This document shows, piece after piece, positions 22,432 to 60,208 of a stretch of 64,000 nucleotides of DNA. The stretch is from Candidatus Aenigmatarchaeota archaeon (GTDB lineage Archaea; Aenigmatarchaeota; Aenigmatarchaeia; CG10238-14; SCSR01). Position 1 is the first letter of the stretch. Every line of letters begins with the position of its first letter. The DNA lies in assembly GCA_039000425.1 (NCBI GenBank), contig JAWBPV010000005.1:5652-69651 (forward strand). The letters are read 5' to 3'. Below the pieces are notes generated by a model. It was not told where the DNA came from, searched no databases, and saw only the letters and a program-made list of their open reading frames with translations. The position numbers were made by a program, and so were the translations under genes.

Positions 22432-23949
22432 ATGGCTGGTAAATTTTATGTAACGACACCGATATATTACGTTAACGCTGACCCACATATAGGTCATGCT
22501 TACACCACGATAATAGCAGACATACTAGCTAGATTTCACAGACTTAAAGGAAAAGATGTTTTTTTCTTGACAGGAACTGATGAAAACAGTCAAAAGAACG
22601 TGGAAGCTGCATCTAAAGCTAATCAAGACGTTGCTCAATTTGTAGATAGAATGGCTGAAATCTGGAAAAGTAAGTTTAAGCAGTTAGGGTTATCTTTTGA
22701 TGATTTCATAAGGACAACCGAAGAAAGACATAAAAAAGGTGTGGAAGAGTTTTTCAGACGGGTGAACAAGAAAGGAGATATTTACAAGGGAAAGTATGTT
22801 GGTTATTATTGTATAGGTTGTGAGGCTTTCATCACAAAATCAGATTTGGTTGACGGTAAATGTCCGATCCACAAGAAAGAGCCTGAAGTGATAGAGGAAG
22901 AAAATTATTTCTTCAAGGCAAGTAAGTATAAAGAAAAGTTATTGGAATATATAGAAAAAAATCCTGATTTCATCCAACCAAAAGAGAGAAGGAATGAAGT
23001 TATAGAGTATGTGAAGAATTTTTTCACAGATGTCAGCATCTCGAGACAAAAGCAAAAGTGGGGGATACCAGTTCCGATAGACAAATCACAAGTTCTCTAC
23101 GTTTGGTTCGATGCTTTGATCAATTATTTGACTGGAATAGGTTTTGGTTGGGATTATAAAAAGTTTGAAAAATATTGGCCAGCTGATTTACATTTGATAG
23201 GTAAAGATATAACAAAATTCCATTGTGCTCTATGGCCTGCTATGCTATTTTCAGCTGAAATAGATCTTCCTAGAAAAATTTTCATCCACGGTTTTCTGAC
23301 AGTAAATGGAGAGAAAATAAGTAAGAGTTTGGGTAATGTGATCGATCCTATAGAGCTGAGTAAGAAATATTCTATAGATGCTTTGAGGTATTCTCTGATA
23401 AGAGAAATGCCTTTAGGGGAAGATGGAGATTTTTCTGAGAAGAGGTTAGTGGAGAGAAACAATAACGAGCTTGTTTCAAACGTAGGAAATTTCGTTCACA
23501 GGACTCTAACTTTTATTTGGTCGAATTTCGACGGTAAAGTTCCTAAGCCAGGAAAATACATGGAAGAAGATGAGAGATTTAAAAATGAGATCGAAAATAT
23601 TGCTGATTTAGTCGGAAATCAAATAGAAAAAATAGAGCTTGACAAAGCTTTGAAATCTATTCTGGATTTCTCTTCAACCTGCAATCAGTATTTCCAGAAG
23701 AAAGAGCCATGGGCTAAGAAAAGTGAAGCACCGACAACACTTTACTTATGTGCCAATGCTGTTAGATGCTTAGCTATATTGTTAACACCATTTTTACCAT
23801 TCTCAGCCGAAAAATTGTGGAAACTCTTAGGTTACGAAGATCCTGTACATAAACAAGATTGGAATTCGGCCTCTCAGTTGAAATTACAACCAGGGTGGCA
23901 GATAAATAAACCAGAAATATTGTTCAAGATAATTGAATATAAAGGATGA
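22432..23949 (+). CDS. metG: methionine--tRNA ligase, catalytic core plus anticodon-binding domain only
   Basis: 505 aa. PIYYVNADPHIGHAYT (HIGH). Zinc knuckles CIGCEAF...CPIHK. KISKSLGN (KMSKS). It ends at TGA 23947-23949. Confidence 0.9.
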   Translation: MAGKFYVTTPIYYVNADPHIGHAYTTIIADILARFHRLKGKDVFFLTGTDENSQKNVEAASKANQDVAQFVDRMAEIWKSKFKQLGLSFDDFIRTTEERHKKGVEEFFRRVNKKGDIYKGKYVGYYCIGCEAFITKSDLVDGKCPIHKKEPEVIEEENYFFKASKYKEKLLEYIEKNPDFIQPKERRNEVIEYVKNFFTDVSISRQKQKWGIPVPIDKSQVLYVWFDALINYLTGIGFGWDYKKFEKYWPADLHLIGKDITKFHCALWPAMLFSAEIDLPRKIFIHGFLTVNGEKISKSLGNVIDPIELSKKYSIDALRYSLIREMPLGEDGDFSEKRLVERNNNELVSNVGNFVHRTLTFIWSNFDGKVPKPGKYMEEDERFKNEIENIADLVGNQIEKIELDKALKSILDFSSTCNQYFQKKEPWAKKSEAPTTLYLCANAVRCLAILLTPFLPFSAEKLWKLLGYEDPVHKQDWNSASQLKLQPGWQINKPEILFKIIEYKG

Positions 23950-23976
23950 AATCGTAAAGATAAATTAAGTGGTTCG

Positions 23977-24306
23977 ATGGGTGAGATTTCCATATCTGAA
24001 TTTCAAAAAATAGAAATGAAAGTTGGGAAAGTTTTGGAAGCCGAAGTTGTGCCAAATTCAAAAAATTTGATAAAACTTCAAGTTGATTTCGGAAACGAGA
24101 AAAAACAAGCTGTCACTGGGCTCTTGAAATATTACAAACCTGAAGAGCTTATCGGAAAAGAGTTTGTTTTCGTCACAAATTTGAAGCCAGCAAAATTCAT
24201 GGGTGTGGAGAGTAATTGCATGATATTGGCAGCTGATAACAAAAAAGGAAAAATAGTGTTGATAAAGCCTGAAAAAGATATAGAACCTGGAAGTAGTATT
24301 ACTTAA
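23977..24306 (+). CDS. tRNA-binding domain protein (EMAP-II/Trbp111-like; MetRS C-terminal domain as separate ORF)
   Basis: 109 aa. KVGKVLEAEVVPNSKNLIKLQVDFG...VTNLKPAKFMGVESNCMILAA is an OB-fold tRNA-binding domain. It is in the same frame as metG, separated only by TGA plus 9 sense codons. Confidence 0.8.
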   Translation: MGEISISEFQKIEMKVGKVLEAEVVPNSKNLIKLQVDFGNEKKQAVTGLLKYYKPEELIGKEFVFVTNLKPAKFMGVESNCMILAADNKKGKIVLIKPEKDIEPGSSIT

Positions 24307-24853: not shown

Positions 24854-24950
24854 CGCCGAGGGTGGGATTCGAACCCACATGCCCACGAAGGGCCCCAGCT
24901 TTCAGTCAAAGACTCAAGGCTGGTGCACTACCAGGTTATGCGACCTCGGC
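24854..24950 (-). tRNA. tRNA-Ser (anticodon TGA), long variable arm, ~12-nt intron in anticodon loop
   Basis: Acceptor GCCGAGG/CCTCGGC. Discriminator G. Anticodon stem CCAGC/GCTGG encloses 19 nt (7 loop + 12 intron). Variable arm GCCC-TTCGT-GGGC. T-arm GTGGG-TTCGAAT-CCCAC. Confidence 0.7.
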
Positions 24951-30483: not shown

Positions 30484-31924
30484 CCAATATCTTTCTCACT
30501 ATTGGATGTGCACTTTCAAGATTTTGTGAAGACAACAGTTCGTAATAATTATAAATTATCATAACAGTTAAAAGTATACCTGTACCGCTTCCTATAGCTC
30601 CCAAGAAGTCTGCTATAGCTGCAAGAGCACCTACTGTAATACCACCTAACACTGCTAAGTATGGTATGTACTTGTTCAACACGGCTTCCATACTCTTCTT
30701 ATCACTCCTATACCCAGGAATTTGCATTCCTATACTTTCCAATTGTTCAGCTACAGAAGCAGCATCCATGCCAGAAGTTGAGACCCAAAAAACTGAAAAT
30801 ATCATTGCAGTAATGCTCAAGAAAATCAAATAAGTTACAGCCCTTATTGCCTCGTTGATTTCCATTCTTCCCAAGACCAAATCACTTAAAAATTTTGTAG
30901 GAGAGGTTAAGTAATAAAGTACACCACCTACTATGTTATTCTCTTTATCATAACAAGCCAATAAACCACAACTCATCTCAGCACTCACAGGATGAATTCC
31001 GATTCTTCCCAAGAGTTGCAAATTAGCTATCAAAGCTGCGGCCAATATCACTGGAATGTTGCTAGTGTAAAGCAACTTTATCGTCCAAGTTCTTCCAAAA
31101 CCTCTCATCCTTGCGAATGTCAAAGGGATATCTATGCCTATATCTTGAACGAAGATCACTATTAGAAAAATTGCAGCAGTAGTTATCAAAGGTAAAGCCG
31201 CAAGTAGAGCTTCTGTAGTTTTATTCGAGAAAAGATTTATGAAAATTTGCCAAATGAGGCCTGATGGTGGTGAATCTGCAGAAGGTAAACAAGTTTCTAT
31301 TTTTGGTGGAATACAAGCTATGGACAAAGGTGAAAAAACTCTCACGAAAATTTGATTCGCGACGCCTGCAGCTATGAAAAGACTTATCCCTGAACCAAAG
31401 CCCCATTTGCTCACTATCTCGTCCAAGAAAAGAGCTATGAGACCTCCTGCCGCAAGCTGAATTATCACAAGGATAACCATAAACATATCTCCTCTTATAG
31501 GCAAAGCTCCTGCTACCACAAAACCGGCAGCTTCTATGAAACAAAACAATATCGCAAGGAATTTGTTCCAAGTTTGAAATTTCTTCCTATCTTCCTCTTT
31601 TTTCGTGTCCCAATTTATTATCTTAGATCCCACAAGAAGCTGAAGTATTATACCTGCTGTAACTATAGGCCCTATACCGAGCGTCATCACACTTCCAAAC
31701 TTTGACCCCAAAACTATCTCGAAGAACCTGAACTGTTCATAAGATGTCCTTTCGACACCATAAACAGTGATGTAAGATAAAGCCAAATAAAGGAAAAGTG
31801 CTATTCCTGTCCATTTGAGACGATCGTTAAAAGTTGGTTGGTAAGTTGGTCTTTTTATACTCGGTAAGAATCTTGCTATTTTCTTCTCTATACCTTCTTT
31901 CTTCTCTTCTTCCATTTCAATCAA
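30476..31924 (-). CDS. secY: preprotein translocase subunit SecY
   Basis: 482 aa, 10 TM helices, typical SecY plug/hinge pattern. Confidence 0.9.
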   Translation of the reverse strand: MIEMEEEKKEGIEKKIARFLPSIKRPTYQPTFNDRLKWTGIALFLYLALSYITVYGVERTSYEQFRFFEIVLGSKFGSVMTLGIGPIVTAGIILQLLVGSKIINWDTKKEEDRKKFQTWNKFLAILFCFIEAAGFVVAGALPIRGDMFMVILVIIQLAAGGLIALFLDEIVSKWGFGSGISLFIAAGVANQIFVRVFSPLSIACIPPKIETCLPSADSPPSGLIWQIFINLFSNKTTEALLAALPLITTAAIFLIVIFVQDIGIDIPLTFARMRGFGRTWTIKLLYTSNIPVILAAALIANLQLLGRIGIHPVSAEMSCGLLACYDKENNIVGGVLYYLTSPTKFLSDLVLGRMEINEAIRAVTYLIFLSITAMIFSVFWVSTSGMDAASVAEQLESIGMQIPGYRSDKKSMEAVLNKYIPYLAVLGGITVGALAAIADFLGAIGSGTGILLTVMIIYNYYELLSSQNLESAHPIVRKILGE

Positions 31925-32321
31925 CTTTCAAAACTTTTCCCCCAACTTTCTCTATTTTCTCGATAGCTTTTTTTGAAAAAAATCTAGCTTTAACTGTTAA
32001 AGGTCTGGAAATATTACCTTTACCCAAGAGTTTATCGAAACCCAGTTCTCTTAAATCTATTTCCTCTAAATTTCTCTCTTCAGCTATTCTTTCCAGTTCC
32101 TCTAGGTTTATCGATTTTATTCTTTTCTTCCTTATAGGGACAAAACCAGTTTTACCGAAATGATTCGGCTCGTATTTAACAACATAACTCCATTTATGTT
32201 TGTGATATCCAGCTTTTCCTCTCCCCCCTCTTGAACCACCTCCTCTAGCTTTTTTGTGACTTCCATGGTAAGTTCTCCTTCCTCTGAATTTCCTATGTTT
32301 TTTCTCTTTTCTAACCACCAT
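31917..32321 (-). CDS. rpl15: 50S ribosomal protein L15 (uL15)
   Basis: 134 aa. Gly/Arg-rich N-terminus (GGGSRGGRGKAG). Confidence 0.9.
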   Translation of the reverse strand: MVVRKEKKHRKFRGRRTYHGSHKKARGGGSRGGRGKAGYHKHKWSYVVKYEPNHFGKTGFVPIRKKRIKSINLEELERIAEERNLEEIDLRELGFDKLLGKGNISRPLTVKARFFSKKAIEKIEKVGGKVLKVD

Positions 32322-32351
32322 GCTTCCATCTCCTAAAAATTGAAGGAATAA

Positions 32352-32819
32352 TCATATCATCCTCTCCAACAATTCATTTATATTCTTTCCCCTATAACCC
32401 AAATCTCCTTCAGGCCAACTCTTTTTAACAGACTTGAACCCTTTGCTCGGTGGTGTTAACCTGAAAACTGGCTTAAGTTTCTTGAAATCCTTGAGTTGAA
32501 TTTTTCCTGAGAGTAGAGCATCGGCAAAATCTTCGAAAGAATTGAAGTTTGTTATTTCTTCGAGCAATCTTTCATCAACCCTTTTATCACCTTCACACCT
32601 TAACCTTTTCTTCAAAAGTTTAACTAGACAATCTTTATCTATTTCTCCCCAAGTACACACATCTTTACATTTTTCCAACATACCTTTAAAACTATCAGTT
32701 TCTGGAACTAAGACACAATTGTTCGGATTTTTCAATCTAAGCATTCTCAACGTATCTTTCACATCTTTCCTTAGACCAGCTTCCCCCCTTATCCTCACGA
32801 CTGCAAACACCTTCATCAC
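32352..32819 (-). CDS. rpl30: 50S ribosomal protein L30 (uL30)
   Basis: 155 aa. FAVVRIRG...TLRMLRL. Confidence 0.85.
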   Translation of the reverse strand: MMKVFAVVRIRGEAGLRKDVKDTLRMLRLKNPNNCVLVPETDSFKGMLEKCKDVCTWGEIDKDCLVKLLKKRLRCEGDKRVDERLLEEITNFNSFEDFADALLSGKIQLKDFKKLKPVFRLTPPSKGFKSVKKSWPEGDLGYRGKNINELLERMI

Positions 32820-33601
32820 CTTTCATAGATATATAACTTCTTCAAAGCATTGTATATGGCGGTTATCAAGTTTATCCTCATGGAAGTATTTCCAAAGGTC
32901 TTAACCCAAACATCTTTTATTCCGGCTAACCTCAATATTTTTTTCGATTCGTCGTCTGCAACCAAACCAACTCCCTTTGGAGCTGGAATTAGAATAACTC
33001 TAACAGATCCACACTTTCCTTCAGTCTTGAAAGGAATGGAATGTTCTTCTCCACAACCACATTCCCAACTACCACATCCCCTCTTTACTTTTATTATGTT
33101 CAATTTCGCTTTTTGAACTGATTTAGCTATAGCATCCCTTGGCTCTAAAGCACTCCCTTTACCTATACCTACTATTCCATCTTCATTCCCAACAACAGAA
33201 AAAGCAGATGCCCTGAATTTTCTACCAGATTTATGCATGGTTGCTGTTATCCTTATAGGAATCCTTTGTGCTCCACCACCTTTTCCAGTCCTTCTTCCTA
33301 TTAGTATTATTTCTGTCTTCAAGTTTGGTAGAAGTTTGTCCACGATTTCTGGTTCTTTTATTATTCTACCTGTTTTAAATATTTCTTCTATATCCTTTAT
33401 TTTTCCCTCAAAAACCTCTTTTCCCAAGCTAGTTCGCGGTTGCCATTTTTCTAGTGGTTGCGGAACTACACTCACTTCTTCAGTTATAGGAACTTCTTCC
33501 TCAGTAGGTAACTTCTCCATCTCTTTCACTTCTTCTATACCTACTTCAACCTTCTCCCCATTTTCCTCAACTTTTTCACCCTTTTTTTCCTCTTCTGCCA
33601 T
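32816..33601 (-). CDS. rps5: 30S ribosomal protein S5 (uS5) with ~55-aa acidic N-terminal extension
   Basis: 261 aa. RRTGKGGGAQRIPIRI ... S5 dsRBD and C-domain. Confidence 0.9.
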   Translation of the reverse strand: MAEEEKKGEKVEENGEKVEVGIEEVKEMEKLPTEEEVPITEEVSVVPQPLEKWQPRTSLGKEVFEGKIKDIEEIFKTGRIIKEPEIVDKLLPNLKTEIILIGRRTGKGGGAQRIPIRITATMHKSGRKFRASAFSVVGNEDGIVGIGKGSALEPRDAIAKSVQKAKLNIIKVKRGCGSWECGCGEEHSIPFKTEGKCGSVRVILIPAPKGVGLVADDESKKILRLAGIKDVWVKTFGNTSMRINLITAIYNALKKLYIYER

Positions 33602-34129
33602 TCACTCACCTATTATTTTCCTTTTAATTTCTTCAAATTTCTCAGGTAAAGACTTAAATTTTTGAAGGTAAGTGGCGATGTGAAGTCCTTTTATTCTATC
33701 TTCAGAAGGAAACATAGATTCATTAACAGGAACTTTAAGGCCTGCATCTAAAGCACCTTTCACGCACGCATAAATCCTGTTGCCTCTAGTTGAAGAGTAA
33801 AGACCGGAATCGAGTATCGCTTCATTTATCCCCTTTCTTAGAGCTTTTCTTCCTATAAGTAAACCTGTTAAGTAAGCTGCAGGAATATTATCACAAGCGA
33901 ATACCCAACCGTAATTCTTCAATTCTTTTGAAGTTGCAGAAACCAATGTTTTATCACCTTCTTCAGAGAAATTTATTATTTGTGCGATTATGTATTTCAA
34001 GCTCCTTCTCACGACAAGCCTAGGTTTTTTTGACATAAGCAACTTCAACCTCTTCTTGTAGTTTGTCTTCCCCAACCTTCTTCTCTTGAAAGGCATTTTG
34101 TAAAGTGGGTTTAATTTCATAAAACTCAC
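33602..34129 (-). CDS. rpl18: 50S ribosomal protein L18 (uL18)
   Basis: 175 aa. [16 protein letters not shown]... Confidence 0.9.
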
Positions 34130-42418: not shown

Positions 42419-42527
42419 TGGGCCTGCGGGGATTTGAACCCCGGACCAACGGGTTTCTTTCATCTTTTATCAAAGCTTTTAGCTTAAGCTAAAAGCCCGC
42501 TGCTCTACCATGCTGAGCTACAGGCCC
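42419..42527 (-). tRNA. intron-containing tRNA, most likely tRNA-Lys (anticodon TTT), ~35-nt intron
   Basis: Acceptor GGGCCTG/CAGGCCC. D-arm GCTC-AGCATGGTA-GAGC. Anticodon stem GCGGG/CCCGT encloses 42 nt beginning CTTTTA. T-arm CGGGG-TTCAAAT-CCCCG. Discriminator A. Confidence 0.6.
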
Positions 42528-46741: not shown

Positions 46742-47494
46742 ATGATAGACGTACACTGTCATCTTGAGCAACCAGATTACGATCAAGATAGGGAAGAAGT
46801 TATAGAGAAATGCAGAAAAGAAATGAAAGCTGTTATAACTTCTTGCGTCCATCCAGCAGATTTCGAGCTAACTATGCGACTCGTTGAGAAATATAAGAAC
46901 TTTTTATTTACAACTGTCGGAATTCATCCGGAGTACGTGAAGGAAATCGGTGAAGCAGAAAGGATGGAATTCTTGGACATAGTGAGGAAAAATAGGGAAA
47001 AAATAGTTGGGATAGGGGAAGTTGGTTTAGATTTCTTGGTAGAAGAAGAGTGGAGGGGAAAACAAAAAGAGATGTTCAAAGATTTTATCCATATCGCGGA
47101 AGAGCTGGACAAGCCTTTGGTTGTTCATGCAAGGAAAGCTTTTGCTGAAGCTATCCAAATCCTAGAGGAAGAAAAAGTGAGAAAAGTTTTAATGCACTTT
47201 TTCACAGCAAACGATCTGGTCAAGAAAGTGAAGGAGAATGGTTGGTACGTTTCTGTTAACACAACTCTTCTAACCAGCAAGAAAGTGAAGAAAGTTGTGA
47301 GGGACATGCCTTTAGAGCAAATCTTGACAGAAACAGATGCTCCATGGTTAGGTCCGGGTGGAAAAAGGAATGATCCAAATTCTGTGAAATTTGTGATAGA
47401 GAAGATAAGCGAGATAAAGAAGATGAGTTTTGAAGAAGTGGACGAAATAACCACTAATAATGCGATAGAATTCTTCAATTTGAAGTTTGATTAA
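46742..47494 (+). CDS. tatD: TatD-family metal-dependent hydrolase
   Basis: MIDVHCHL start and overall TatD/TIM-barrel pattern. Confidence 0.8.
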   Translation: MIDVHCHLEQPDYDQDREEVIEKCRKEMKAVITSCVHPADFELTMRLVEKYKNFLFTTVGIHPEYVKEIGEAERMEFLDIVRKNREKIVGIGEVGLDFLVEEEWRGKQKEMFKDFIHIAEELDKPLVVHARKAFAEAIQILEEEKVRKVLMHFFTANDLVKKVKENGWYVSVNTTLLTSKKVKKVVRDMPLEQILTETDAPWLGPGGKRNDPNSVKFVIEKISEIKKMSFEEVDEITTNNAIEFFNLKFD

Positions 47495-47905: not shown

Positions 47906-49120
47906 TTAAACTCTATACCTCAAAATAGCACCTATTCCACTAAGCTCTTTGAATTGTATGCCTTCGCTTGTTTCGGTTGAAATATATTCGATTTTTGTTC
48001 CAAGCGAGGAAGCTTTTTCAACAAGTTGATCGAGCAATTCTTCACTTCCTTCAACTATCAATTTTTGTCCACATACAGGACACTTTTGTTTCTCCACCAA
48101 GAATTTTGGCAAAACTTTTTCTTCCTTATATCCACAAACACATCTGAACTTCACCCTTACCAAGTTGAATTCTTCAGAAATGAGAAGTGTGTCTACAGCA
48201 CCAGCTTCCAAAGCTTTTACAGTTTCTTCGAATCCGTAAACAACGTTACCCTCGTTCTTTAACTCAACGAAAAATTTGTTCAAAAGATCTCTTTCTTTAG
48301 TTATCAAGGCTTCTTTCAACAGATCTTGCGATTTATTCACCAGTTCTTCCAATCCATAATCATCTGTAGATCCTATATCTTTCACACCAAGGACTTTTTT
48401 CTGAAGCTGGTAGTGAAGGTAGCCTTTTTCGTAAAAAATTTCTTTGGTTGGACCAGGCCCACCTATGATTATCCCTTTGAGTTCGGGTTGCTGTAAGAAG
48501 AATTTTGAAGCTTCTTCCCCAACTTTTTTCAAGAACTCGTTCAAGGCATCGTCCCTTATCCTATCGTACCTTTTCTGCGACATACCACCTTTCACGGTTT
48601 TGCTCGGTACTGTTGATTCAAAACTCTTAATCTTCTCTATCCTTTTACCTTTCAGTAATCCTACAGTTGCTTCTCTTGCATCTAGTGTTATCAAGCCATA
48701 AACTTCTTTCTCCTCTATCAATTCTTTTAAAGGATCTAGAACAAAAGTTTGATCACACCAGTAAATTTTTTGGGAAATCGGAACAGGCGGCTCATAACTC
48801 CAAAGTTTTATATCAACTTTCCCTTCGACATCTGAAACATTTCCACAAAAAATCACCAACCCATTATCAGGAGTTTTCCTGAAAAGCTTAAGATGCTGGA
48901 TTATTTTCTCCAAAGCAGCCAGAACGTTCTTCCTAGTACTTTTACTTTTTATATTGTTTGCGGTTCCTTTTTCCTGGAATAGTTGGTTCATGGCTTCTGT
49001 TAAATTGTAGCCAGAAGGGATGTAAACGCTAACCAATTCAGTATGCCTCCCCCTTATTTTTTCAAGTTCCTTTATGAGTTTTTTCAAGGCAAGTTTTTCT
49101 TCTTCTTTCATTTCAACCAT
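47906..49120 (-). CDS. prf1: peptide-chain release factor aRF1 homologue (GGQ motif reads GGM)
   Basis: 404 aa. GTANNIKSKSTRKNV (NIKS codon-recognition motif) in domain 1. Domain 2 reads KGGMSQKRYDRIR where aRF1/eRF1 have GGQ. C-terminal CxxC...CxxC knuckle. Confidence 0.75.
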   Translation of the reverse strand: MVEMKEEEKLALKKLIKELEKIRGRHTELVSVYIPSGYNLTEAMNQLFQEKGTANNIKSKSTRKNVLAALEKIIQHLKLFRKTPDNGLVIFCGNVSDVEGKVDIKLWSYEPPVPISQKIYWCDQTFVLDPLKELIEEKEVYGLITLDAREATVGLLKGKRIEKIKSFESTVPSKTVKGGMSQKRYDRIRDDALNEFLKKVGEEASKFFLQQPELKGIIIGGPGPTKEIFYEKGYLHYQLQKKVLGVKDIGSTDDYGLEELVNKSQDLLKEALITKERDLLNKFFVELKNEGNVVYGFEETVKALEAGAVDTLLISEEFNLVRVKFRCVCGYKEEKVLPKFLVEKQKCPVCGQKLIVEGSEELLDQLVEKASSLGTKIEYISTETSEGIQFKELSGIGAILRYRV

Positions 49121-49140: not shown

Positions 49141-51468
49141 TTAACGTATGTTGTGCATCGCTCTTAAATCTTTCTCAAAAACTTTAAGCTCTTCAGGAAT
49201 TTTAATTTCTATCTCATCTTTAAGGGAAATCCCCTTCTCTTTCTTCAAATTCCAAACTTTGGAATTGAACTCAACTATTTTTTCAGTCAGTTTTGCGTGC
49301 TCAGTTTTCCATAAAGGTTTGGGGAAATTTTGCAGATGAATCGATTTTTTGCCGTATAGCTCTGACCATATCTTCTCAGTTATGAAAGGTACAATAGGTG
49401 CTAGTAATAATAAAATATTTTTCAAGCAAGTGTGTAAAGTGAACCAAGCTGATCGCTGCTCTTCTTTACTGAAATTTTCACCGTAAGCCCTTGGTTTAAC
49501 CATTTCTACGTAATGGCTAGCGAACAAATTCCAAGTGAATTCTCTCAATTTTGTAGCAGGTATGAAGAAGTTGAACTCTTCGTATCCTTTCAAGCATCCT
49601 TCTATCAGCTTGCTTAGCTCAGCCAAAATCCATTTATCCGTTTCTGTAAGCTTAGCTTTTTTAGGTTGTGGGAAAGAAGAAACGAACCTGGCTATGTTCC
49701 ACAATTTTGTCAAGAATTTACCAGCGTTTGCTATTCTTTGCTCAGAGCAACGGAAATCTTCACCAAGACTTGATTCTTGGGCGGACCAAAACCTGAAAGT
49801 ATCGGCACCGTATTTTTCCAAAATCGGCAAAGGATCTATAACGTTCCCTTTACTTTTACTCATCTTTTCTCCTTTTTCATCAACACCAAACCCCGTTATC
49901 CATGCGTGCTCCCACGGAATTTTTCTAGTTAACTGATAGCATCTTAGCAGAGTATAGTATAACCAAGTCCTCACTATATCTTTTCCTTGAGGTCTTAAGG
50001 AAGTTGGATAAGCTTTCTTGAAAAATTTATCGTCTCTCAAGAATTTTGTTATGAAGAGGGGAGAAATACTCGAGTCGAACCATGTATCAAAAGTCCTCGT
50101 TTCACCTTCGAATTCTTCTCCTTTGCAATGTTCACATTTCTTGAAAGGAGGTTTTTCTTTCCATGGTTGATAGTATTTTCCAGGTTTTGGTAAGTTAGGT
50201 TTTCCACATTTTTTACAGTACCAAACCGGAACTTCAGTTCCGTAAAACCTTCTCCTGGATATTGGCCAATCTATGGTTATCGATTTAATCCAATCATAAA
50301 GTAATTGCCTATGCCTTTCAGGATGAAATTTTATTCTTTCAGCTATTTTCTTCAAATTTTCTAGGAAAGGTAATTGTTTCAAGTAGAATTCGTCGAGGGA
50401 AATTATCTCTATAGGAGTTTTACTCCTCTCGCAAACTGGCGTGCGATGTTTTATAATTTCTTTTTTAACCACAAGCCCTTGAGCTTCTAGATCTTGAATT
50501 ATCTTCTCCCTTGCTTCTTTGACTTCAAGGCCAGCATACTTTCCAGCTTTTTCGTTCATTTTTCCGTCAAGGTCTATGGCTATTATTTCCTCGAGTTTAA
50601 GTTCCCTGAACAACCTTACATCTCTAGTATCCCCATAACTACAAACCATTTCAACTCCTGATCCAAAATCAGGAACTGCTGAAGGATGGGCCAGTATCGG
50701 AACTTCCCTTTCATAAATCGGTACCAAAGCTTTTTTTCCAACAAAATTCTTATACCTCTCATCTTCAGGATGAACCAAAACAGCTTTACAAGAACACAAA
50801 AGTTCCGGTCTTGTTGTTGCTATTGTTATGGAATCGTCTTCACCACATATCTTGAACTTGATGTAAACTAGTTGGGACGGCATTTCCTCGTAAATCACAT
50901 CAGCATCTGCTATAGTTGTTTTACAATCAGGACAGTAATTGTTCGGTCTTTTGTCCTTGTATATCAAGCCTTTTTTCCATAAAATCAGAAAAGTTTCCTG
51001 TGTAAGCTTTCTGTATTCTTCAGAATCAGTTCTGTAATAATTATCGAAATCCCCGCTCAGCCCCATCATCTTCATTATTCCTATCAACTCAGCCTCTAAA
51101 TCGTCCAAAGCAGTTCTTGCAAGGGCGATGAATTTTTCTCTGGGTGTTTCGTGCATTTTTATGTTGAATTTCTTTTCCACATATCTTTCAACGGGTACAC
51201 CATTCCTATCGATCCCTATTGGAAAGAAAACCTCGAAACCGAGCATCCTGGCAGTTCTTGCTATCATGTCTATTTGTGAGTAATGGGAGGCAGCTCCGAT
51301 ATGCCATGGCCTGCCGGAAGGATATGGTGGTGGGGTATCTATGGAAAAAATCTTTTTCTTACTCTTTGGGTTGAAGAGGAAAAGGTTCTCTTTCTCCCAC
51401 TTTTTAAGTATCTCTTTTTCAATTTTTGTGTTCCATCTATTTTCCTCGATTTTTGGTTTAAACTCCAT
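49141..51468 (-). CDS. valS: valine--tRNA ligase (compact, 775 aa)
   Basis: IDTPPPYPSG...WHIGAA (HIGH-variant). VHPEDERYK editing-domain motif. DTWFDSS. KMSKSKGNVIDP. Confidence 0.75.
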   Translation of the reverse strand: MEFKPKIEENRWNTKIEKEILKKWEKENLFLFNPKSKKKIFSIDTPPPYPSGRPWHIGAASHYSQIDMIARTARMLGFEVFFPIGIDRNGVPVERYVEKKFNIKMHETPREKFIALARTALDDLEAELIGIMKMMGLSGDFDNYYRTDSEEYRKLTQETFLILWKKGLIYKDKRPNNYCPDCKTTIADADVIYEEMPSQLVYIKFKICGEDDSITIATTRPELLCSCKAVLVHPEDERYKNFVGKKALVPIYEREVPILAHPSAVPDFGSGVEMVCSYGDTRDVRLFRELKLEEIIAIDLDGKMNEKAGKYAGLEVKEAREKIIQDLEAQGLVVKKEIIKHRTPVCERSKTPIEIISLDEFYLKQLPFLENLKKIAERIKFHPERHRQLLYDWIKSITIDWPISRRRFYGTEVPVWYCKKCGKPNLPKPGKYYQPWKEKPPFKKCEHCKGEEFEGETRTFDTWFDSSISPLFITKFLRDDKFFKKAYPTSLRPQGKDIVRTWLYYTLLRCYQLTRKIPWEHAWITGFGVDEKGEKMSKSKGNVIDPLPILEKYGADTFRFWSAQESSLGEDFRCSEQRIANAGKFLTKLWNIARFVSSFPQPKKAKLTETDKWILAELSKLIEGCLKGYEEFNFFIPATKLREFTWNLFASHYVEMVKPRAYGENFSKEEQRSAWFTLHTCLKNILLLLAPIVPFITEKIWSELYGKKSIHLQNFPKPLWKTEHAKLTEKIVEFNSKVWNLKKEKGISLKDEIEIKIPEELKVFEKDLRAMHNIR

Positions 51469-51696: not shown

Positions 51697-53274
51697 TTAA
51701 ACTTGTATTCTTTTCTCATAAGTTATGACTGGGACATTTTTCATCAACACCATCGGTCCTACTTGAGAAGATGGCACCAAATCTTCTTCTCCTGTTGGTG
51801 TAGTTTTTGCACAATAACCAGGATCGTAGAAATAAAGATCGTAACTTGACAAAACTAATTGAGATGAAATTTGATATATAGGTAAAGTTAGATGGAGAGG
51901 AGTCCTTACAGGTAACAATTCACCATCTTTTAAAAAATAAACTTCTGTAGATAACTCCAATTCTTTTTCTTCTTCCTCTCCGATTTTTCCTATTCGTACG
52001 AAAGCATCTTCTCCCAAATGTTCACCAACACTTTTATACATAACCAACACATTTTCTTTCCTTGACGCAACCTCACCCATTTCTTCTATAGATTTTGGTC
52101 CATGTTTAGATGGTAAGGCGTAGAGGATGCTACTCCTTGGTTGAGGGATGAAAGAAAACTCAGAAGATATAGCATTCCCAGTTTCGTTAACGTCAGAAAA
52201 CATGGATCCCAATTTTCTTCCAGTTAATTTACCCTTACTTATCAACATTTTTTCCTCAGCCGGAAACATTTCAAAATCGTGATTAAAGCCACCGAACAAC
52301 CAGAAGTTCTGTAGAACGTCAAACCTGGAGGAAGTTTCGATCAAAGGGCTATCTATTAAAGAGAGAGATTTTGGTAGCTGAATTCCGTTCAAACCGTCGA
52401 ATATAGGTTTCATTTCATACTTCGATTCTTCCCAGTCTTTTCTACTCAGTTTTATGCTTCCTTCAAAAGAATGTCCAAAGATTTCGTGTAAAACTGTTGA
52501 AGAAGGTGTTATCACGTCGTACAAACCATTACCGATTCTTATCCCATTTTCCGATACATTCTTGGCAATTTTTGAAAGTTCATCGATAAGTTCGTGGTAA
52601 GAATTAGCATCACGAAGGGATTGTTCCAAGGTTATGTCCGGGATAGTTTTTATGAGACGATGTAAATTGGTGATGTCTGTTTGTGTAACAGGATTCATTC
52701 CGAGATTCCTCTGAATACTTTCTTCTGGTGAAATGTATATCATGAATTTCAAGAGAAAGTTGGGTATGACTTGAAAAACTTCGACATTGTTGGAATCTCT
52801 CTGGTAAATTGTTCTTTGGGTTAGATTGTACTTTGTGAAAACCCTTAAGCTAGGATCTTTGTTCTTCGACGCTTCTTTTATTTCCTTGATGAAATCATGC
52901 GGTATAACAAAATTTTTATCTTCTTCCACATAACTTTTTTCGGGAAATACCAATTCTTTTTTCGGAATGATAACATCAGTTTTTATAACATTTTCCCTAG
53001 CTTTCTTTATCAAGAACTCTACATCTTCCCTATCTATCCTTGCTGACGGTAAATCTTCTGTAGCTGAATATAGAAATAATTCATTCTCCTTGAGGAAAGT
53101 TATCCTCATCCCGAGCGTGTACTCAACACTCGGGTTATAAGCTTTCCCATCTCTAAATTTTCCCCCCTGTATTTTTCTATGCTCTATATAAACGTGGACG
53201 TAATCTGCAACGTCCCTCACTTCTCTTATAAACTTTCTGATCGGTGTTTTTGCATACTCAAAAAGCTTCACCAT
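51697..53274 (-). CDS. TldD/PmbA-family metallopeptidase
   Basis: 525 aa. VLHEIFGHSFEG metal-binding motif. Confidence 0.65.
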   Translation of the reverse strand: MVKLFEYAKTPIRKFIREVRDVADYVHVYIEHRKIQGGKFRDGKAYNPSVEYTLGMRITFLKENELFLYSATEDLPSARIDREDVEFLIKKARENVIKTDVIIPKKELVFPEKSYVEEDKNFVIPHDFIKEIKEASKNKDPSLRVFTKYNLTQRTIYQRDSNNVEVFQVIPNFLLKFMIYISPEESIQRNLGMNPVTQTDITNLHRLIKTIPDITLEQSLRDANSYHELIDELSKIAKNVSENGIRIGNGLYDVITPSSTVLHEIFGHSFEGSIKLSRKDWEESKYEMKPIFDGLNGIQLPKSLSLIDSPLIETSSRFDVLQNFWLFGGFNHDFEMFPAEEKMLISKGKLTGRKLGSMFSDVNETGNAISSEFSFIPQPRSSILYALPSKHGPKSIEEMGEVASRKENVLVMYKSVGEHLGEDAFVRIGKIGEEEEKELELSTEVYFLKDGELLPVRTPLHLTLPIYQISSQLVLSSYDLYFYDPGYCAKTTPTGEEDLVPSSQVGPMVLMKNVPVITYEKRIQV

Positions 53275-53405
53275 GTTATAAAAGAAAATCAGTTAAAGAT
53301 TTATTTCTATTCCAACTACCAATATAAATTTGCCTTGCCTGAAAAAGCCTCTGTGGAGCGATGAGTCGAGCAAGTAAGGAGACAGATGCACGAGGCAAGG
53401 CGACA

Positions 53406-55454
53406 TTAACAATCTTCTCCAAACCATTCAGGTTTCTTTCTCTTAAATTTAAAGTCTGTGAGAAACATAAATAGGAGAAAGCTACAAAGGAAAGCTAGCA
53501 AGATTATCAAAGCTACATGAGCATCTGAGAGCACAAACTTACCAGTTATTATTTCTTTCTCTTGAGGTAGGGTTATGCTGGTTGTGGTCGTGCTGGTTGT
53601 GGTGATCGTTGTGCTGGTTGTGGTGGTAATACATGCACCATCCTTACATCCAAAACCACAATACTCAACATGTACCCAACTCTTGCTACAATCAGAATAT
53701 TGGTAGAGTTGAAGTTTCCAATTACCTGAACACTTGAATTCGTCTAAGAACTTAGCAACACATCTTTCCGCTTTCTCTCTAACCGAAAATGTTTCTGAAT
53801 AAATTGTCGCACTTTTATCACAACCCGAATAATAAACTTTAACCCTATAATTTCCGGGCTCTCGAACAGTTGCCCAACAACTTAAACTACTTGTTGTCTT
53901 TCCAGGCACGTAAACAGAGTTTTCGCTACACTTCATGGGTATACAATACGGGTCTGTTTTGCAGAGATATGCATCAAGGTTCACGTAACCTCCAAGATCA
54001 CCATAGTTTGTTATTTCAACTGTAGCTTTTACAACATCGCCCACAATATAGTTAAATTGCGAACTAACACTTGCCCATATACTACAAGGCTTTCCGGTTG
54101 AACAACTACCATCTACACATCCATACTCACAGTATTTCCAATTAATCCACTCTACAGAACAATCAGAATATCTATATTCTCTTTGTAACCAGTTCCCGTA
54201 ACACCTGAAGTTGTTCAAATAACCTTCTTCACAACCTGGTAAGCATGCTCCATTGTAACATCCATACTCACAGTATTTCCAATTAACCCATTCGGTGGAA
54301 CAATCATTGTAAAGATACTTTCTCTGTAACCAGTTCCCGTAACATCTATAATCATCCAAGAATTGTGGAACACAAGTTGATATTTTTACACAAACACCAG
54401 AATCACAAGTATAACCTGGAGCACAGCCTTGGTAACAAGAGCCTATTGCGACCCATCTCCTATCTTTGACCACATAAGTACATGTGGCTCCAAAGCACGT
54501 ATAATCCCTATATTCTTGCTCTTTTTCTCTAGTTCCAATTCCACATTCATATCCGTTCATATTACACCTTTCCCTTCCAGTATCGTACCATCCATCTTTT
54601 TCCATGATGCAATAACCATTATTACAAACATAGCCTGGTGGACAATTCTCGATTATAAGCTCCCAACCAGAGCCATCCGTTCTACATTTCTCGTAAGCAA
54701 CTTGAGTTGAACAAGCACAATACCTATTCCTTATCTCACCAGGATTACAAACCTTTATCCTGGTTAAAACAAGTTCTACCCTCTTAACCTCAGAACAAGA
54801 GCAGGTTATGGTCCTTGTGTCTGTTGAATAACCTTCTTTGCTCGCAGAAACCACATGAGTTCCAACCGAAACTTGTTTAAGGACATGGGAAGAATAAGCT
54901 ACGTAATTACCATCCACGTAAATATTCGCTTCTAAAGGTATGCCACGGTCATCTTTTACGTAGATATCCAGATGACAATATTGTTCAACTTGTTCCAAGA
55001 CTTCAACTTTGGCTTTCCAGCAAAAGCAAGGATCTTGAACAATTTGATAGCAATCACTACTTACCCTGACTTCAACTATTCCTGTGTAACCATAAGGTGC
55101 ATAACTTGTGAGATCGTATTCGGCTGAAGCAGAATCACCTGAAACAACTCTATATCCCGAAGAAAAGCAATTAGGTGCAGTAGAAGACCATGCTTGGTAC
55201 CAATTGCTAGGAGAATAAGGAAGACCATCCAGGTTTTTATAAGTTGATCCAATTTTTATCCAGGCTGTGAAGCATCTTGGGTATAAATCCCCCATGGAAT
55301 TGTAAACAGTAACTTTAATCCTTCTGGCATTAGATACTTGAAAAATTGCAGATTTGTACTTATAAGTTTCATCTTGTCCATCGCAAATAGCTAGAGTTAT
55401 TCCTGGGAGTATCAAAAGGAAGGAGAAAATCATGGCCATGATTTTGAATTTCAT
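53406..55454 (-). CDS. large Cys-rich secreted surface protein with three ~40-aa Cys-rich repeats, Thr-rich linker, LPQ motif and C-terminal TM anchor
   Basis: The likely start is MKFKIMAMIFSFLLILPGITLA (signal peptide). Repeats FLDDYRCYGNW...CEYGCYNGAC, YLNNFRCYGNW...CEYGCVDGSC and FLDEFKCSGNW...CGFGCKDGAC. Tail TTTTSTTITTTSTTTTSITLPQEKE-[TM]-KFKRKK. Confidence 0.6.
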   Translation of the reverse strand: MKFKIMAMIFSFLLILPGITLAICDGQDETYKYKSAIFQVSNARRIKVTVYNSMGDLYPRCFTAWIKIGSTYKNLDGLPYSPSNWYQAWSSTAPNCFSSGYRVVSGDSASAEYDLTSYAPYGYTGIVEVRVSSDCYQIVQDPCFCWKAKVEVLEQVEQYCHLDIYVKDDRGIPLEANIYVDGNYVAYSSHVLKQVSVGTHVVSASKEGYSTDTRTITCSCSEVKRVELVLTRIKVCNPGEIRNRYCACSTQVAYEKCRTDGSGWELIIENCPPGYVCNNGYCIMEKDGWYDTGRERCNMNGYECGIGTREKEQEYRDYTCFGATCTYVVKDRRWVAIGSCYQGCAPGYTCDSGVCVKISTCVPQFLDDYRCYGNWLQRKYLYNDCSTEWVNWKYCEYGCYNGACLPGCEEGYLNNFRCYGNWLQREYRYSDCSVEWINWKYCEYGCVDGSCSTGKPCSIWASVSSQFNYIVGDVVKATVEITNYGDLGGYVNLDAYLCKTDPYCIPMKCSENSVYVPGKTTSSLSCWATVREPGNYRVKVYYSGCDKSATIYSETFSVREKAERCVAKFLDEFKCSGNWKLQLYQYSDCSKSWVHVEYCGFGCKDGACITTTTSTTITTTSTTTTSITLPQEKEIITGKFVLSDAHVALIILLAFLCSFLLFMFLTDFKFKRKKPEWFGEDC

Positions 55455-55528
55455 GAATAAGTTATCAAAGAAAAACTTTAAATACTTTTTTATAGGTAAA
55501 CTTTTTTCGTTCAAAAGTGTAATTTAAA

Positions 55529-56248
55529 ATGAGGAAAATGATAATAGCTGCTACAGGAGACGTTCATTCACCTAGATTCTTTGCAGATTTCGTTAAAGCT
55601 GTTGATGAGCTTATGGTTAGGCCAGACTTGATGTTTTTGCTTGGTGATATGATAGAGAGAGGACATTTAGAAGAATATGATAAGATTTACAACACGCTTT
55701 TTGGAAAAATAAATTGTCCGATAGTTGCATGTTTCGGTAACAATGAATACCAGGATATAAGGGAGGAAATAAAGCTTAGGTATAAGGAAATAAAATTTCT
55801 GGACGATGAAGCCACTATTTTACAAATAGGGAATTTAAAGGTTGGTGTAGTTGGTACAACAGGTAGCTTGGATGAACCTACTAGATGGCAAAAAGCAAAC
55901 GTTCCAAACATAGAGAATTTATTCAAAGCAAGGGTTACAATAGTTGATAACCTTCTTAACAGGATGAAGACCAACATTTCAATCTTACTGATCCATTACG
56001 CTCCAACTTACAAAATCCTGGAAGGAGAAAACCCGAACTTTTACAAGAATCTGGGGTCGATTGCTTACGAGCAAGTCTTGATAAACAGAAGGCCAACGCT
56101 TGTACTTACTGGCCATTCCCACAAAGGATCCAAGATGGTTTGGGTGGATACGGTACCGATCTACAACGTTGCCTTACCTTTAAACAAACAAATAGTGGTC
56201 ATAGATACGGAAAAAGACCTAAGACCAGGAATAACTAGGTTCATTTAG
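55529..56248 (+). CDS. calcineurin-like metallophosphoesterase
   Basis: 239 aa. GDVH, GDMIERG, GNNE, GHSH motifs. Confidence 0.7.
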   Translation: MRKMIIAATGDVHSPRFFADFVKAVDELMVRPDLMFLLGDMIERGHLEEYDKIYNTLFGKINCPIVACFGNNEYQDIREEIKLRYKEIKFLDDEATILQIGNLKVGVVGTTGSLDEPTRWQKANVPNIENLFKARVTIVDNLLNRMKTNISILLIHYAPTYKILEGENPNFYKNLGSIAYEQVLINRRPTLVLTGHSHKGSKMVWVDTVPIYNVALPLNKQIVVIDTEKDLRPGITRFI

Positions 56249-58023: not shown

Positions 58024-58115
58024 GGGCACGTAGCTTAGCCTGGTTGGAGCAACCGAAGCTTTAGCTGTTGAAGCTGATAACCGGTAGGTCCCCGGTTCAA
58101 ATCCGGGCGTGCCCA
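58024..58115 (+). tRNA. intron-containing tRNA, probably tRNA-Ile (anticodon GAT) with a ~17-nt intron at a non-canonical position (30/31)
   Basis: Acceptor GGGCACG/CGTGCCC. D-arm GCTT-AGCCTGGTTG-GAGC. T-arm CCCGG-TTCAAAT-CCGGG. Removing AAGCTTTAGCTGTTGAA gives anticodon arm ACCGG-CTGATAA-CCGGT. A GAAGCT direct repeat sits at both junctions. Confidence 0.55.
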
Positions 58116-58178
58116 CTTTCCTTGGTTTAGAAGGATAGAAAAGTATTTAAGGGGATAGTTAGTATAAAAAATTAGTCT

Positions 58179-58837: not shown

Positions 58838-58944
58838 GCCCCGTTCGTCTAGTCCGGTCAAGGACGCGGCCCTTTCGATAAATCTCGAAAGGTTTGATGA
58901 AAAGATGATAGGCTGCAACCTGGGTTCAAATCCCAGACGGGGCA
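58838..58944 (+). tRNA. tRNA-Glu (anticodon TTC) with ~32-nt intron
   Basis: Acceptor GCCCCGT/ACGGGGC. D-loop TAGTCCGGTCAAG (Glu-like). Anticodon stem CGGCC/GGCTG encloses 39 nt starting CTTTCG. The intron 3' part TCGAAAGG pairs with exon CCTTTCGA. T-arm CTGGG-TTCAAAT-CCCAG. Confidence 0.7.
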
Positions 58945-58966: not shown

Positions 58967-60208
58967 TTGGCTTTTATAAGCAATCAAAACAAGGCTAAAA
59001 TCATGCCTGAACTTTATGGTTATGAGAAAGGAATAGAAAGGGGATTGTTGGCAATTAAACAAATAGATGAAAGAACTTATGAAAAAGTGAAGGAGTTTGT
59101 GAGGAAGTTGGAAACTAACAATTATTCGAAAGGAAGGATTTACAAGTACATTTATTTCTTGAAAACTCTCAGAGAGTTGCTTGGAAAAGATTTTAGTGAA
59201 GCTAAAAAACAAGATGTTGAAGAATTGGTGATAAAGCTTAACAACAATAACTATTCTGAAGCTTCAAAATCGGATTTCAAGAAAATTTTGAAATTTTACA
59301 TGAGGTGGCTTAAGTTTGGAAAGCTTGATGGGAAATATCCTGAAGAAGTAGAATGGATTAAAACAACGATCAAGAAAAACAACGAGAAAGTTCCTGAGCA
59401 AATTTTAACTCAGAAAGAAGTTGAATTGATTGCAAATCAAGCAGAAAATTCGATGGAAAGAGCCTTTGTTTTGTGCTTGTATGAAACAGGTTGCAGGATC
59501 GGAGAATTTTTGAACATGAGAATTAAAGATATAAGCTTTGATCAGTATGGATGCTACATTTTGGTTTCGGGAAAAACAGGATGGAGAAGAGTAAGGGTTT
59601 TAGATTACAGCAAGGATTTGATAAGTTGGTTGGATTCTCATCCTTTCAAATCAAATCCTGAAAGCTTTGTTTGGGTAAACCCAAAGAATCAAAAGAGATT
59701 GCTTCCCGATGATGCTAATCACATGTTAAAAAATTTGGCCAAGAAAGCAGGAATAGCAAAAGCATGCAATCCCCATGCTTTCAGGCATGCAAGGGCTACT
59801 CATTTGGCTAAAATACTAACTGAACAGCAATTGAAAGTTTACTTTGGATGGGCTAAAGATTCAGGAATGGCTTCTGTTTATGTTCATTTATCAGGAGAAG
59901 ATGTTGATGAATCTTTGTTGAAAGCAAAGGGAATAAAAGTAGAGAAAGAAAGGGAAGAAGTTAAGCCTCTTGTGAGAATATGCCAAAAATGCAATGAACC
60001 GAATTCTTCTTTATCCCATTTCTGTAAAAAATGTGGTTCTCCTTTGGATTTGAAGATAGTTCTTGAGTTGGATGAGCAGAGGAAAAGGTTTGAAGAATTG
60101 CTAAGGGATTTCTTGGTTTATTATGCTGAAAAAGATAAGAATTTCAAGAAAGTTCTTGTTCAGTTTATCAAGGAAAGGAAAGCGGAAAATTTATTCTTTA
60201 GTGGTTAA
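58967..60208 (+). CDS. tyrosine recombinase / integrase with C-terminal zinc ribbon (paralogue 3)
   Basis: 413 aa. NPHAFRHARATH. YVHLSGEDVDE. CQKCNEPNSSLSHFCKKCG. The likely start is MPELYGYEKG. Confidence 0.85.
   Translation: MAFISNQNKAKIMPELYGYEKGIERGLLAIKQIDERTYEKVKEFVRKLETNNYSKGRIYKYIYFLKTLRELLGKDFSEAKKQDVEELVIKLNNNNYSEASKSDFKKILKFYMRWLKFGKLDGKYPEEVEWIKTTIKKNNEKVPEQILTQKEVELIANQAENSMERAFVLCLYETGCRIGEFLNMRIKDISFDQYGCYILVSGKTGWRRVRVLDYSKDLISWLDSHPFKSNPESFVWVNPKNQKRLLPDDANHMLKNLAKKAGIAKACNPHAFRHARATHLAKILTEQQLKVYFGWAKDSGMASVYVHLSGEDVDESLLKAKGIKVEKEREEVKPLVRICQKCNEPNSSLSHFCKKCGSPLDLKIVLELDEQRKRFEELLRDFLVYYAEKDKNFKKVLVQFIKERKAENLFFSG

Follow-up and report, generated by a model that had tools for sequence, protein, structure and literature searches.

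Aenigmatarchaeota release factors aRF1 with methionine or an aromatic residue at the position of the GGQ glutamine

Results and discussion

An aRF1 gene with methionine at the GGQ position

The stretch of DNA analysed here, called the window throughout, comprises 64,000 nucleotides of a contig of a Candidatus Aenigmatarchaeota archaeon and contains on its minus strand, at positions 47906..49120, the gene for an archaeal class-I release factor, aRF1, in which the third residue of the catalytic GGQ motif is methionine. The gene encodes 404 amino acids, ends with TAA and has the full eRF1_1/eRF1_2/eRF1_3 architecture (59.8, 140 and 93.7 bits, respectively, all above the gathering scores of the Pfam models). 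TIGR03676, the NCBIfam equivalog model for aRF1, matches the protein with 476.1 bits at a cutoff of 234.7 and covers model positions 2-403 of 403, in agreement with a preliminary description of this DNA that had recognised in the open reading frame (ORF) a 404-residue aRF1 homologue with the codon-reading NIKS motif. The ORF listing places both GTANNIKSKSTRKNV and KGGMSQKRYDRIR within this frame. The NIKS stop-codon recognition motif (N56-S59, 48944..48955, minus strand) and the YxCxxxF motif (Y120 W C122 D Q T F126, 48743..48763, minus strand) are intact, and so, judging from sequence, is the C-terminal GIGAILRY (47915..47938, minus strand), a motif of the GILRY type that in eRF1 constitutes the eRF3/aEF1-alpha interaction region (PMC2613156).

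The tip of the catalytic loop, G178-G179-M180-S181-Q182, is encoded by GGT GGT ATG TCG CAG at 48575..48589 of the minus strand, so that the interval flagged earlier is exactly GGMSQ. The individual codons lie at 48589-48587 (G178), 48586-48584 (G179), 48583-48581 (M180), 48580-48578 (S181) and 48577-48575 (Q182); the plus strand reads cat acc acc at 48581-48589, which gives GGT GGT ATG on the coding strand, as had been reported. The ATG codon of M180 is two substitutions away from CAG and three away from CAA. In phmmer searches against PDB sequences KGGMSQKRYDRIR aligns gap-free with KGGQSAQRFARLR of the Halobacterium aRF1 (4af1, E 2.4e-82) and likewise with RGGQSALRFARLR of human eRF1, the corresponding loop columns being kggMsqkrydrir in the window protein, kggQsaqrfarlr in 4af1 and rggQsalrfarlr in human eRF1. 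Met180 therefore occupies the position of the catalytic glutamine of the solved aRF1 and eRF1 structures, as the preliminary description had maintained, and no glutamine of the protein falls on that position. Of the GGQ tripeptide required of class-I release factors the protein keeps Gly-Gly and has Met180 as the third residue, and we therefore file it as an aRF1 variant and not as a canonical member of the family.

An AlphaFold2 model built with 79 relatives as input has a mean pLDDT (predicted local distance difference test score) of 90.4 and shows residues 169-179 as coil and a long helix beginning at residue 180. The best PDB folds for this model are aRF1 of 4af1 and eRF1 of 5lzt, with a template modelling (TM) score of 0.84 to the eRF1 of the 5lzt termination complex. 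By sequence, by fold and, as set out below, by genomic position, the window protein is an aRF1.

Sequence integrity and gene neighbourhood

Nothing apart from the odd motif itself would suggest that the gene is an artefact, a pseudogene or a decaying paralogue, and we give this explanation hardly any credence. The DNA of the gene is 100% identical across four independent assemblies, the two Logan assemblies of the SRA runs SRR21619492 and SRR21619498 and the two NCBI metagenome-assembled genomes (MAGs) GCA_044343505.1 and GCA_038999945.1. This identity, which stands in for a check of read support, rules out a sequencing or assembly error and upholds the earlier judgement that a base-call error is not involved. 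In comparison with the orthologue at locus L122 (83% amino-acid identity), nonsynonymous differences amount to a pN of 0.116 and synonymous differences to a saturated pS of 0.81 (pN/pS ~0.14, with the synonymous sites saturated), and the low pN against a saturated pS indicates strong purifying selection. A pseudogene, which had been offered as one reading of the motif, is ruled out by this value and by the intact frame of 404 codons, as well as by the identity of the four assemblies. A decaying paralogue, finally, is hard to reconcile with bit scores equal to those of the GGQ sisters and with a trait that is kept across 132 sequence clusters.

The gene lies in a conserved block. Directly upstream of it is the gene for valine--tRNA ligase (ValRS; 49141..51468, minus strand; NF009687 959 bits, cutoff 738), further upstream a Metallophos phosphoesterase gene (55529..56248, plus strand), and the downstream part of the block includes the gene for a TatD-family hydrolase (46742..47494, plus strand; PF01026 238 bits), so that the order in the window is Metallophos, two extra genes, ValRS, aRF1, a small membrane protein and TatD. 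A relative with GGM (L010, GCA_038998295.1) has Metallophos–ValRS–aRF1–…–TatD, a sister lineage with the canonical motif (L009) has Metallophos–…–ValRS–aRF1(GGQ)–…–TatD, and a further GGQ locus (L008) has an aminoacyl-tRNA synthetase gene followed by aRF1(GGQ)–NYN–TatD. From the shared Metallophos–ValRS–aRF1–TatD block it follows that the GGM gene is the positional orthologue of canonical GGQ aRF1. Compared with their counterparts at L009, the window proteins are 40% (ValRS), 46% (aRF1), 44% (TatD) and 41% (Metallophos) identical, and by this measure the GGM aRF1 has diverged no faster than its neighbours; the TatD of the window is 61% identical to the TatD beside the GGM aRF1 of L010 and 44% identical to that beside the GGQ aRF1 of L009. 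The two extra genes that part Metallophos from ValRS (51697-53274 and 53406-55514, minus strand) encode a 525-residue protein without a Pfam match and a 702-residue protein with a PEGA domain. This pair (51697-55514) looks like a lineage-specific insertion, because both genes are missing at the otherwise syntenic loci L010 and L009.

Distribution and phylogeny of aRF1 without the GGQ glutamine

None of the 120 best homologues, which come from Aenigmatarchaeota MAGs and are 58-100% identical to the window protein, contains GGQ; about 100 have GGM and the remainder GGF, GGW or GGY. Of 150 sequences that each represent a 50%-identity cluster, 122 are GGQ and 27 non-GGQ. In a neighbour-joining tree of 243 sequences, from which inteins had been excised beforehand, the window aRF1 nests among GGQ aRF1s of Aenigmatarchaeota and DPANN and belongs to a single clade. 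This clade comprises 132 sequences, in which the third residue is Met (114), Trp (9), Tyr (6) or Phe (3) and never Gln. Labels of the closest GGQ proteins read Aenigmarchaeota, Aenigmatarchaeota or DPANN. Loss of the glutamine is thus a trait of this whole clade within the Aenigmatarchaeota and involves Trp, Phe and Tyr besides Met. The preliminary description contained neither this nor the second glutamine of the loop discussed below.

Within the clade the deepest branches carry Trp, followed by a group with Trp, Phe or Tyr and finally by Met. The stem branch of the clade is short (0.013), the root-to-tip distance is 0.309 inside as compared to 0.331 outside the clade, and TIGR03676 scores range from 443 to 507 bits for the non-Gln proteins as opposed to 425-467 bits for the GGQ sister lineages. 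By these sequence-based measures the clade shows no sign of a fast-evolving, neofunctionalised copy.

Scattered aRF1-like proteins outside the main clade lack the glutamine as well, most of them with Gln two positions further on (+2). They include P0153, P0394, P0152, P0154, P0191, P0171, P0248 and P0209, which have Trp or Phe, and furthermore P0239 and P0260 (GGA), P0188 (GGS) and P0270 (GGE). The N domain varies too: one GGM subclade has NVKD (SLAQNVKDKTVRKN) in place of the canonical NIKS that the window protein keeps (P0042-P0044, P0047, P0049-P0051, P0053, P0058, P0064, P0065, P0069 and P0105; loci L010 and L123), and NVKS or NVKN occurs in some of the GGQ sister lineages. These variants may reflect altered stop-codon recognition.

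A proposed mechanism of peptide release

Bacteria, eukaryotes and archaea all have dedicated enzymes that methylate the glutamine of GGQ, and the exact share of its side chain and of the methylation in peptide release is not settled. The motif has been described as universal among class-I release factors, whichever of the three domains they come from (PMC2613156, PMC6144793, PMC5799190), and methylation of the GGQ of aRF1 has been proposed for archaea in general (PMC2613156, PMC6144793). In the literature on GGQ, aRF1 or release factors in connection with Aenigmarchaeota, Aenigmatarchaeota or DPANN we found no description of a non-Gln variant. As to the mechanism, the backbone geometry of Gly-Gly is allowed by glycine only, and the third residue's main-chain amide is considered critical because a Gln-to-Pro exchange abolishes release; the glutamine's side chain with its N5-methyl group serves in packing and in the selection of water (PMC4691834, PMC5799190). 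The elements called critical, Gly-Gly and the main-chain NH, are kept in the window aRF1.

We consider it probable that the window aRF1 is the orthologous, hydrolysis-competent class-I release factor of a large Aenigmatarchaeota clade. A bulky hydrophobic residue, Met in the window and Trp, Phe or Tyr in its relatives, would have permanently taken the place of the GGQ glutamine. If the published mechanism applies, the two glycines would continue to position the backbone NH of residue 180 within the peptidyl-transferase centre, where this NH and the 2'-OH of A76 would form the catalytic element, and the hydrophobic side chain would assume the packing and water-selecting role of N5-methylated glutamine without being methylated. 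Gln182 probably provides a polar group or contact, since it is present almost every time the first glutamine is lost. A predicted consequence is that Mtq2-dependent methylation of GGQ would no longer be needed in these reduced genomes; the 64-kb window contains no ORF with the NPPY motif of the Mtq2 methyltransferase, a result of little weight at such a window size. Three readings had been offered in the preliminary description, and the one we favour takes the protein for the genuine aRF1 of the lineage, with a termination chemistry out of the ordinary, on account of positional orthology, a normal evolutionary rate and the intact NIKS, YxCxxxF and Gly-Gly, rather than for a pseudogene or a non-hydrolysing paralogue.

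Constraint on the catalytic loop and a glutamine at position +2

In an alignment of 79 sequences that includes GGM, GGW, GGF, GGY and GGQ forms, G178, G179, S181 and R184 of the loop are invariant, as are K58, Y120, C122 and F126, and N56, I57 and S59 are conserved to at least 90%. Directly after the third motif residue an intein is present in 65 of 269 sequences, its sites being GGQ/C…HN/S in canonical aRF1 and KGGM/C…HN/SQ in the non-Gln clade; mini-inteins of this clade sit precisely between Met and Ser, at the site equivalent to GGQ/S of the canonical proteins. The catalytic loop is thus still under functional constraint, with independent support from the intein sites.

The aRF1 inteins, all of them outside the window, are about 130-580 amino acids long and occur across many archaeal lineages. 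Their carriers include P0008, P0038, P0079, P0084, P0092, P0111 and P0121-P0125 and the loci L013, L042, L044, L054, L065, L074, L077, L092, L111, L125 and L128, and a literature search on aRF1 inteins found no paper.

Among 400 sequences, Gln at +2 (GGxSQ) is found in 137 of 149 non-Gln but in only 24 of 251 GGQ proteins, counts that share ancestry and correspond to about ten independent lineages. GGQ proteins without this residue mostly have GGQSA or GGQSS. In P0153, P0191, P0171, P0248, P0239/P0260 and the large clade, Ser is followed by Gln, as opposed to Ala, Ser or His in the nearest GGQ relatives, so that the pairing of a +2 glutamine with loss of the GGQ glutamine has arisen repeatedly, in at least six separate lineages. 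P0152 and P0154 have GGQSQ neighbours, and GGQSQ would be a plausible intermediate with two glutamines. The glutamine of the loop may therefore have been relocated rather than simply lost.

Several points weigh against a hydrolysis-competent aRF1 of the proposed kind. In vivo, neither yeast nor E. coli tolerates mutations of the GGQ glutamine. Such intolerance is cited in PMC12440015. The +2 counts are lowered in force by the shared ancestry mentioned above. About 8% of the clade, with GGMSA, GGMSS or GGWSA, have no glutamine anywhere in the loop, and Gln182 is therefore not strictly required but favoured. In the AlphaFold2 model, which confirms the fold, the helix that starts at M180 puts Q182 in the first helical turn, from where its side chain may or may not reach the ester bond. 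Lastly, a second hydrolase bearing GGQ may exist elsewhere in the genome, beyond the window.

Would catalysis then require a loop glutamine at all? A sub-case of our reading holds that it is fully independent of glutamine, by means of the backbone NH and a hydrophobic plug only, with Gln182 incidental. To go by the title of their article of 2000, Seit-Nebi and co-workers reportedly found that substitutions of the glutamine in human eRF1 do not abolish activity, which counts for this sub-case. So does the persistence of GGMSA, GGMSS and GGWSA in several sublineages and in the GTDB representative L126, and the view that the side chain packs while the main chain is critical (PMC4691834, PMC5799190). 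The recurrent gain of Gln at +2 upon loss of the glutamine at position three would however be difficult to explain if Gln182 had no role, and we regard complete independence as improbable. The hydrolysis-competent aRF1 that we favour would probably make use of Gln182.

Copy number and the possibility of a non-hydrolysing stop-codon reader

A different explanation is that the protein reads stop codons without being a hydrolase, that is, it recruits ABCE1 and splits the ribosome but leaves the peptidyl-tRNA uncut, with release afterwards or in parallel by a second aRF1, aVLRF-1, a bacterial-type release factor or an ArfB-like protein encoded elsewhere. The residue considered catalytic is indeed absent, a few members of the clade have no loop glutamine whatsoever, mutants of the glutamine are not tolerated in vivo in model organisms (as cited in PMC12440015), and the genome beyond the window may hold another hydrolase.

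A second copy of the gene was sought in three ways. With a hidden Markov model (HMM) built from aRF1 relatives, the 64-kb window contains no other eRF1-family ORF at E <= 10, which bears out the earlier statement that this is its only release-factor-like gene. A scan of GTDB species representatives with the N-domain motif N[IV]KxKxxRKNVxxAL, which is common to GGM and GGQ forms, gave at least 120 loci, and those listed come from 120 different assemblies, none of which appears twice. Among these 120 loci, 18 are non-Gln (11 GGW, 7 GGM), all of them titled Aenigmatarchaeota or unclassified archaeon, and the listed loci from every other named phylum are GGQ. Lastly, contigs of near-genome size with GGM proteins are found among the best 120 homologues (938,630, 840,504, 783,396, 757,503 and 690,605 bp), and none of them recurs among the best 120 matches to the GGQ sisters, where the large contigs are of 832,879 and 740,627 bp. 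These three results are indirect, and they are suggestive of the absence of a second aRF1 copy from the genome, not proof of it.

That no listed assembly has two aRF1 matches speaks against a non-hydrolysing reader, as does the fact that the gene is the positional orthologue of canonical aRF1. Moreover, a loop that is idle in the peptidyl-transferase centre would hardly account for the invariance of its Gly-Gly, Ser and Arg; in Pelota, which is not a hydrolase, the loop is gone altogether (PMC2613156). A stop-codon binder unable to release would, in addition, compete with the true release factor. We thus hold a reader without hydrolase activity to be unlikely and prefer the hydrolysis-competent aRF1.

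Stop codons, tRNA genes and other features of the window

Unusual stop-codon use or read-through had been named as a possible correlate of the altered motif. In a crude set of 72 window ORFs the stop codons are TAA (30), TGA (30) and TAG (12); all three end ORFs, there is no sign of reassignment, and an altered genetic code was rejected. ARAGORN called a 'tRNA-Stop (tta)' at 58024-58116 of the plus strand. This gene contains a 17-nt non-canonical intron (58056-58072) inside the anticodon stem, removal of which yields a perfect tRNA-Ile(GAU), and a suppressor tRNA is thereby ruled out. Three more intron-containing tRNA genes lie at 42419-42527 (minus strand), 24854-24950 (minus strand) and 58838-58944 (plus strand), with scores of 61, 48 and 46 bits, respectively, to the Rfam tRNA model. 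ARAGORN missed two of the three and called the one at 42419-42527 tRNA-Phe(aaa); its anticodon loop CUUUUA suggests tRNA-Lys(UUU).

The in-frame TGA noted earlier in metG (22432-24306, plus strand) is real. The core of the methionyl-tRNA synthetase (MetRS), 505 residues encoded by 22432-23946, ends at the TGA at 23947-23949, and nine codons past it an in-frame ATG at 23977 opens a tRNA_bind domain of 109 residues. Relatives of the enzyme are either about 500 residues long or fused and about 620 residues long, the closest one (87% identity) having 509, and a conserved split gene and read-through of UGA are equally likely.

Directly downstream of the tRNA gene at 58838-58944 lies a gene of the phage integrase family (58967-60208, plus strand), which could mark an integrated element. 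The ribosomal protein cluster uL18, uS5, uL30 and uL15 (31917-34129, minus strand), whose genes overlap slightly or have stop and start codons that abut, is ordinary.

Implications

Taken further, our reading would have the whole clade terminate translation normally without the GGQ glutamine, in some members without any glutamine in the loop, a hydrophobic residue replacing methyl-glutamine and Mtq2 being unnecessary. In this extended form, which has the loss reached via a double-glutamine intermediate of the GGQSQ type, the proposal is a tentative one and we would sooner doubt than accept it. A more radical variant of it would have hydrolysis passed to another enzyme after splitting of the ribosome driven by aRF1 and ABCE1.

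The clade is a natural test of what the GGQ glutamine is needed for. It offers a strongly selected set of replacements by Met, Trp, Phe and Tyr, in most cases together with a putatively compensating glutamine at +2 and in some without it, and these variants are directly usable in release assays, structure determination and genetic swaps. If the proposal is true, the chemistry of peptide release does not depend on GGQ. Where annotation pipelines and alignments rely on GGQ as a hallmark, such genes will be mislabelled or distrusted, and genetic-code engineering may have a use for the variants as release factors that are attenuated or altered.

Comparison with known release factors and their relatives

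With canonical aRF1 and eRF1 (Halobacterium 4af1, Aeropyrum 3agk, human 1dt9/5lzu) the window protein shares the three domains and the length, NIKS and YxCxxxF, the Gly-Gly-x-Ser-x-x-Arg-[FY] loop, the GILRY-type C-terminus, the fold and, with the GGQ sisters, the genomic slot. It differs in having Met, and its relatives Trp, Phe or Tyr, in place of the supposedly invariant N5-methylated glutamine, in the +2 glutamine where sister lineages have Ala or Ser, and further along the loop in R-Y-D instead of the canonical R-F-E.

The preliminary description had also considered a Pelota-like or otherwise non-hydrolysing paralogue. Pelota/Dom34 is an aRF1 paralogue that is also without GGQ and does not hydrolyse peptidyl-tRNA, but it is missing NIKS, YxCxxxF and the entire loop tip, all three of which are kept in the window protein. 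The pelota equivalog model TIGR00111 gives 92.4 bits, below its cutoff of 177.65, and the Gly-Gly-x-Ser-x-x-Arg loop, which is of consequence only within the peptidyl-transferase centre, is invariant; both points disfavour such a paralogue. Models for hibernation factors of the Balon / MSMEG_1130 type reach 38.3, 30 and 24.4 bits at cutoffs of 480, 320 and 330, respectively. On these HMM scores a Pelota-like or hibernation-factor paralogue is ruled out.

The closest parallel in the motif itself is provided by aVLRF-1/acVLRF-1, Vms1-like factors of archaea and of Actinobacteria/Chloroflexi, whose reported catalytic motif is GGxSQ (Burroughs & Aravind 2019, PMC6514570). They belong to the same aeRF1 superfamily, and GGMSQ of the window matches their motif literally. 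These are, however, ribosome-rescue factors without a codon-reading NIKS domain, whereas the window protein has an N domain with NIKS. The Pfam model acVLRF1 scores 44 bits on residues 149-222, far under the 140 bits of eRF1_2 on the same stretch, and the NCBIfam model acVLRF1 (NF041024) scores 33.2 bits at a cutoff of 125. In the window protein GGxSQ seems to be a secondary acquisition within a true aRF1.

Glutamine mutants of RF1, RF2 and eRF1 have been made in the laboratory (Shaw & Green 2007; Seit-Nebi 2000/2001; Santos 2013), and they are summarised in PMC4691834 and PMC5799190. According to these summaries the glutamine side chain packs and selects the nucleophile, and the main-chain NH and the glycines are indispensable, so that a natural release factor without the glutamine is chemically plausible. 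The laboratory mutants are engineered and generally unfit in vivo, whereas the substitution in the window is fixed in a natural lineage and is accompanied by co-substitutions.

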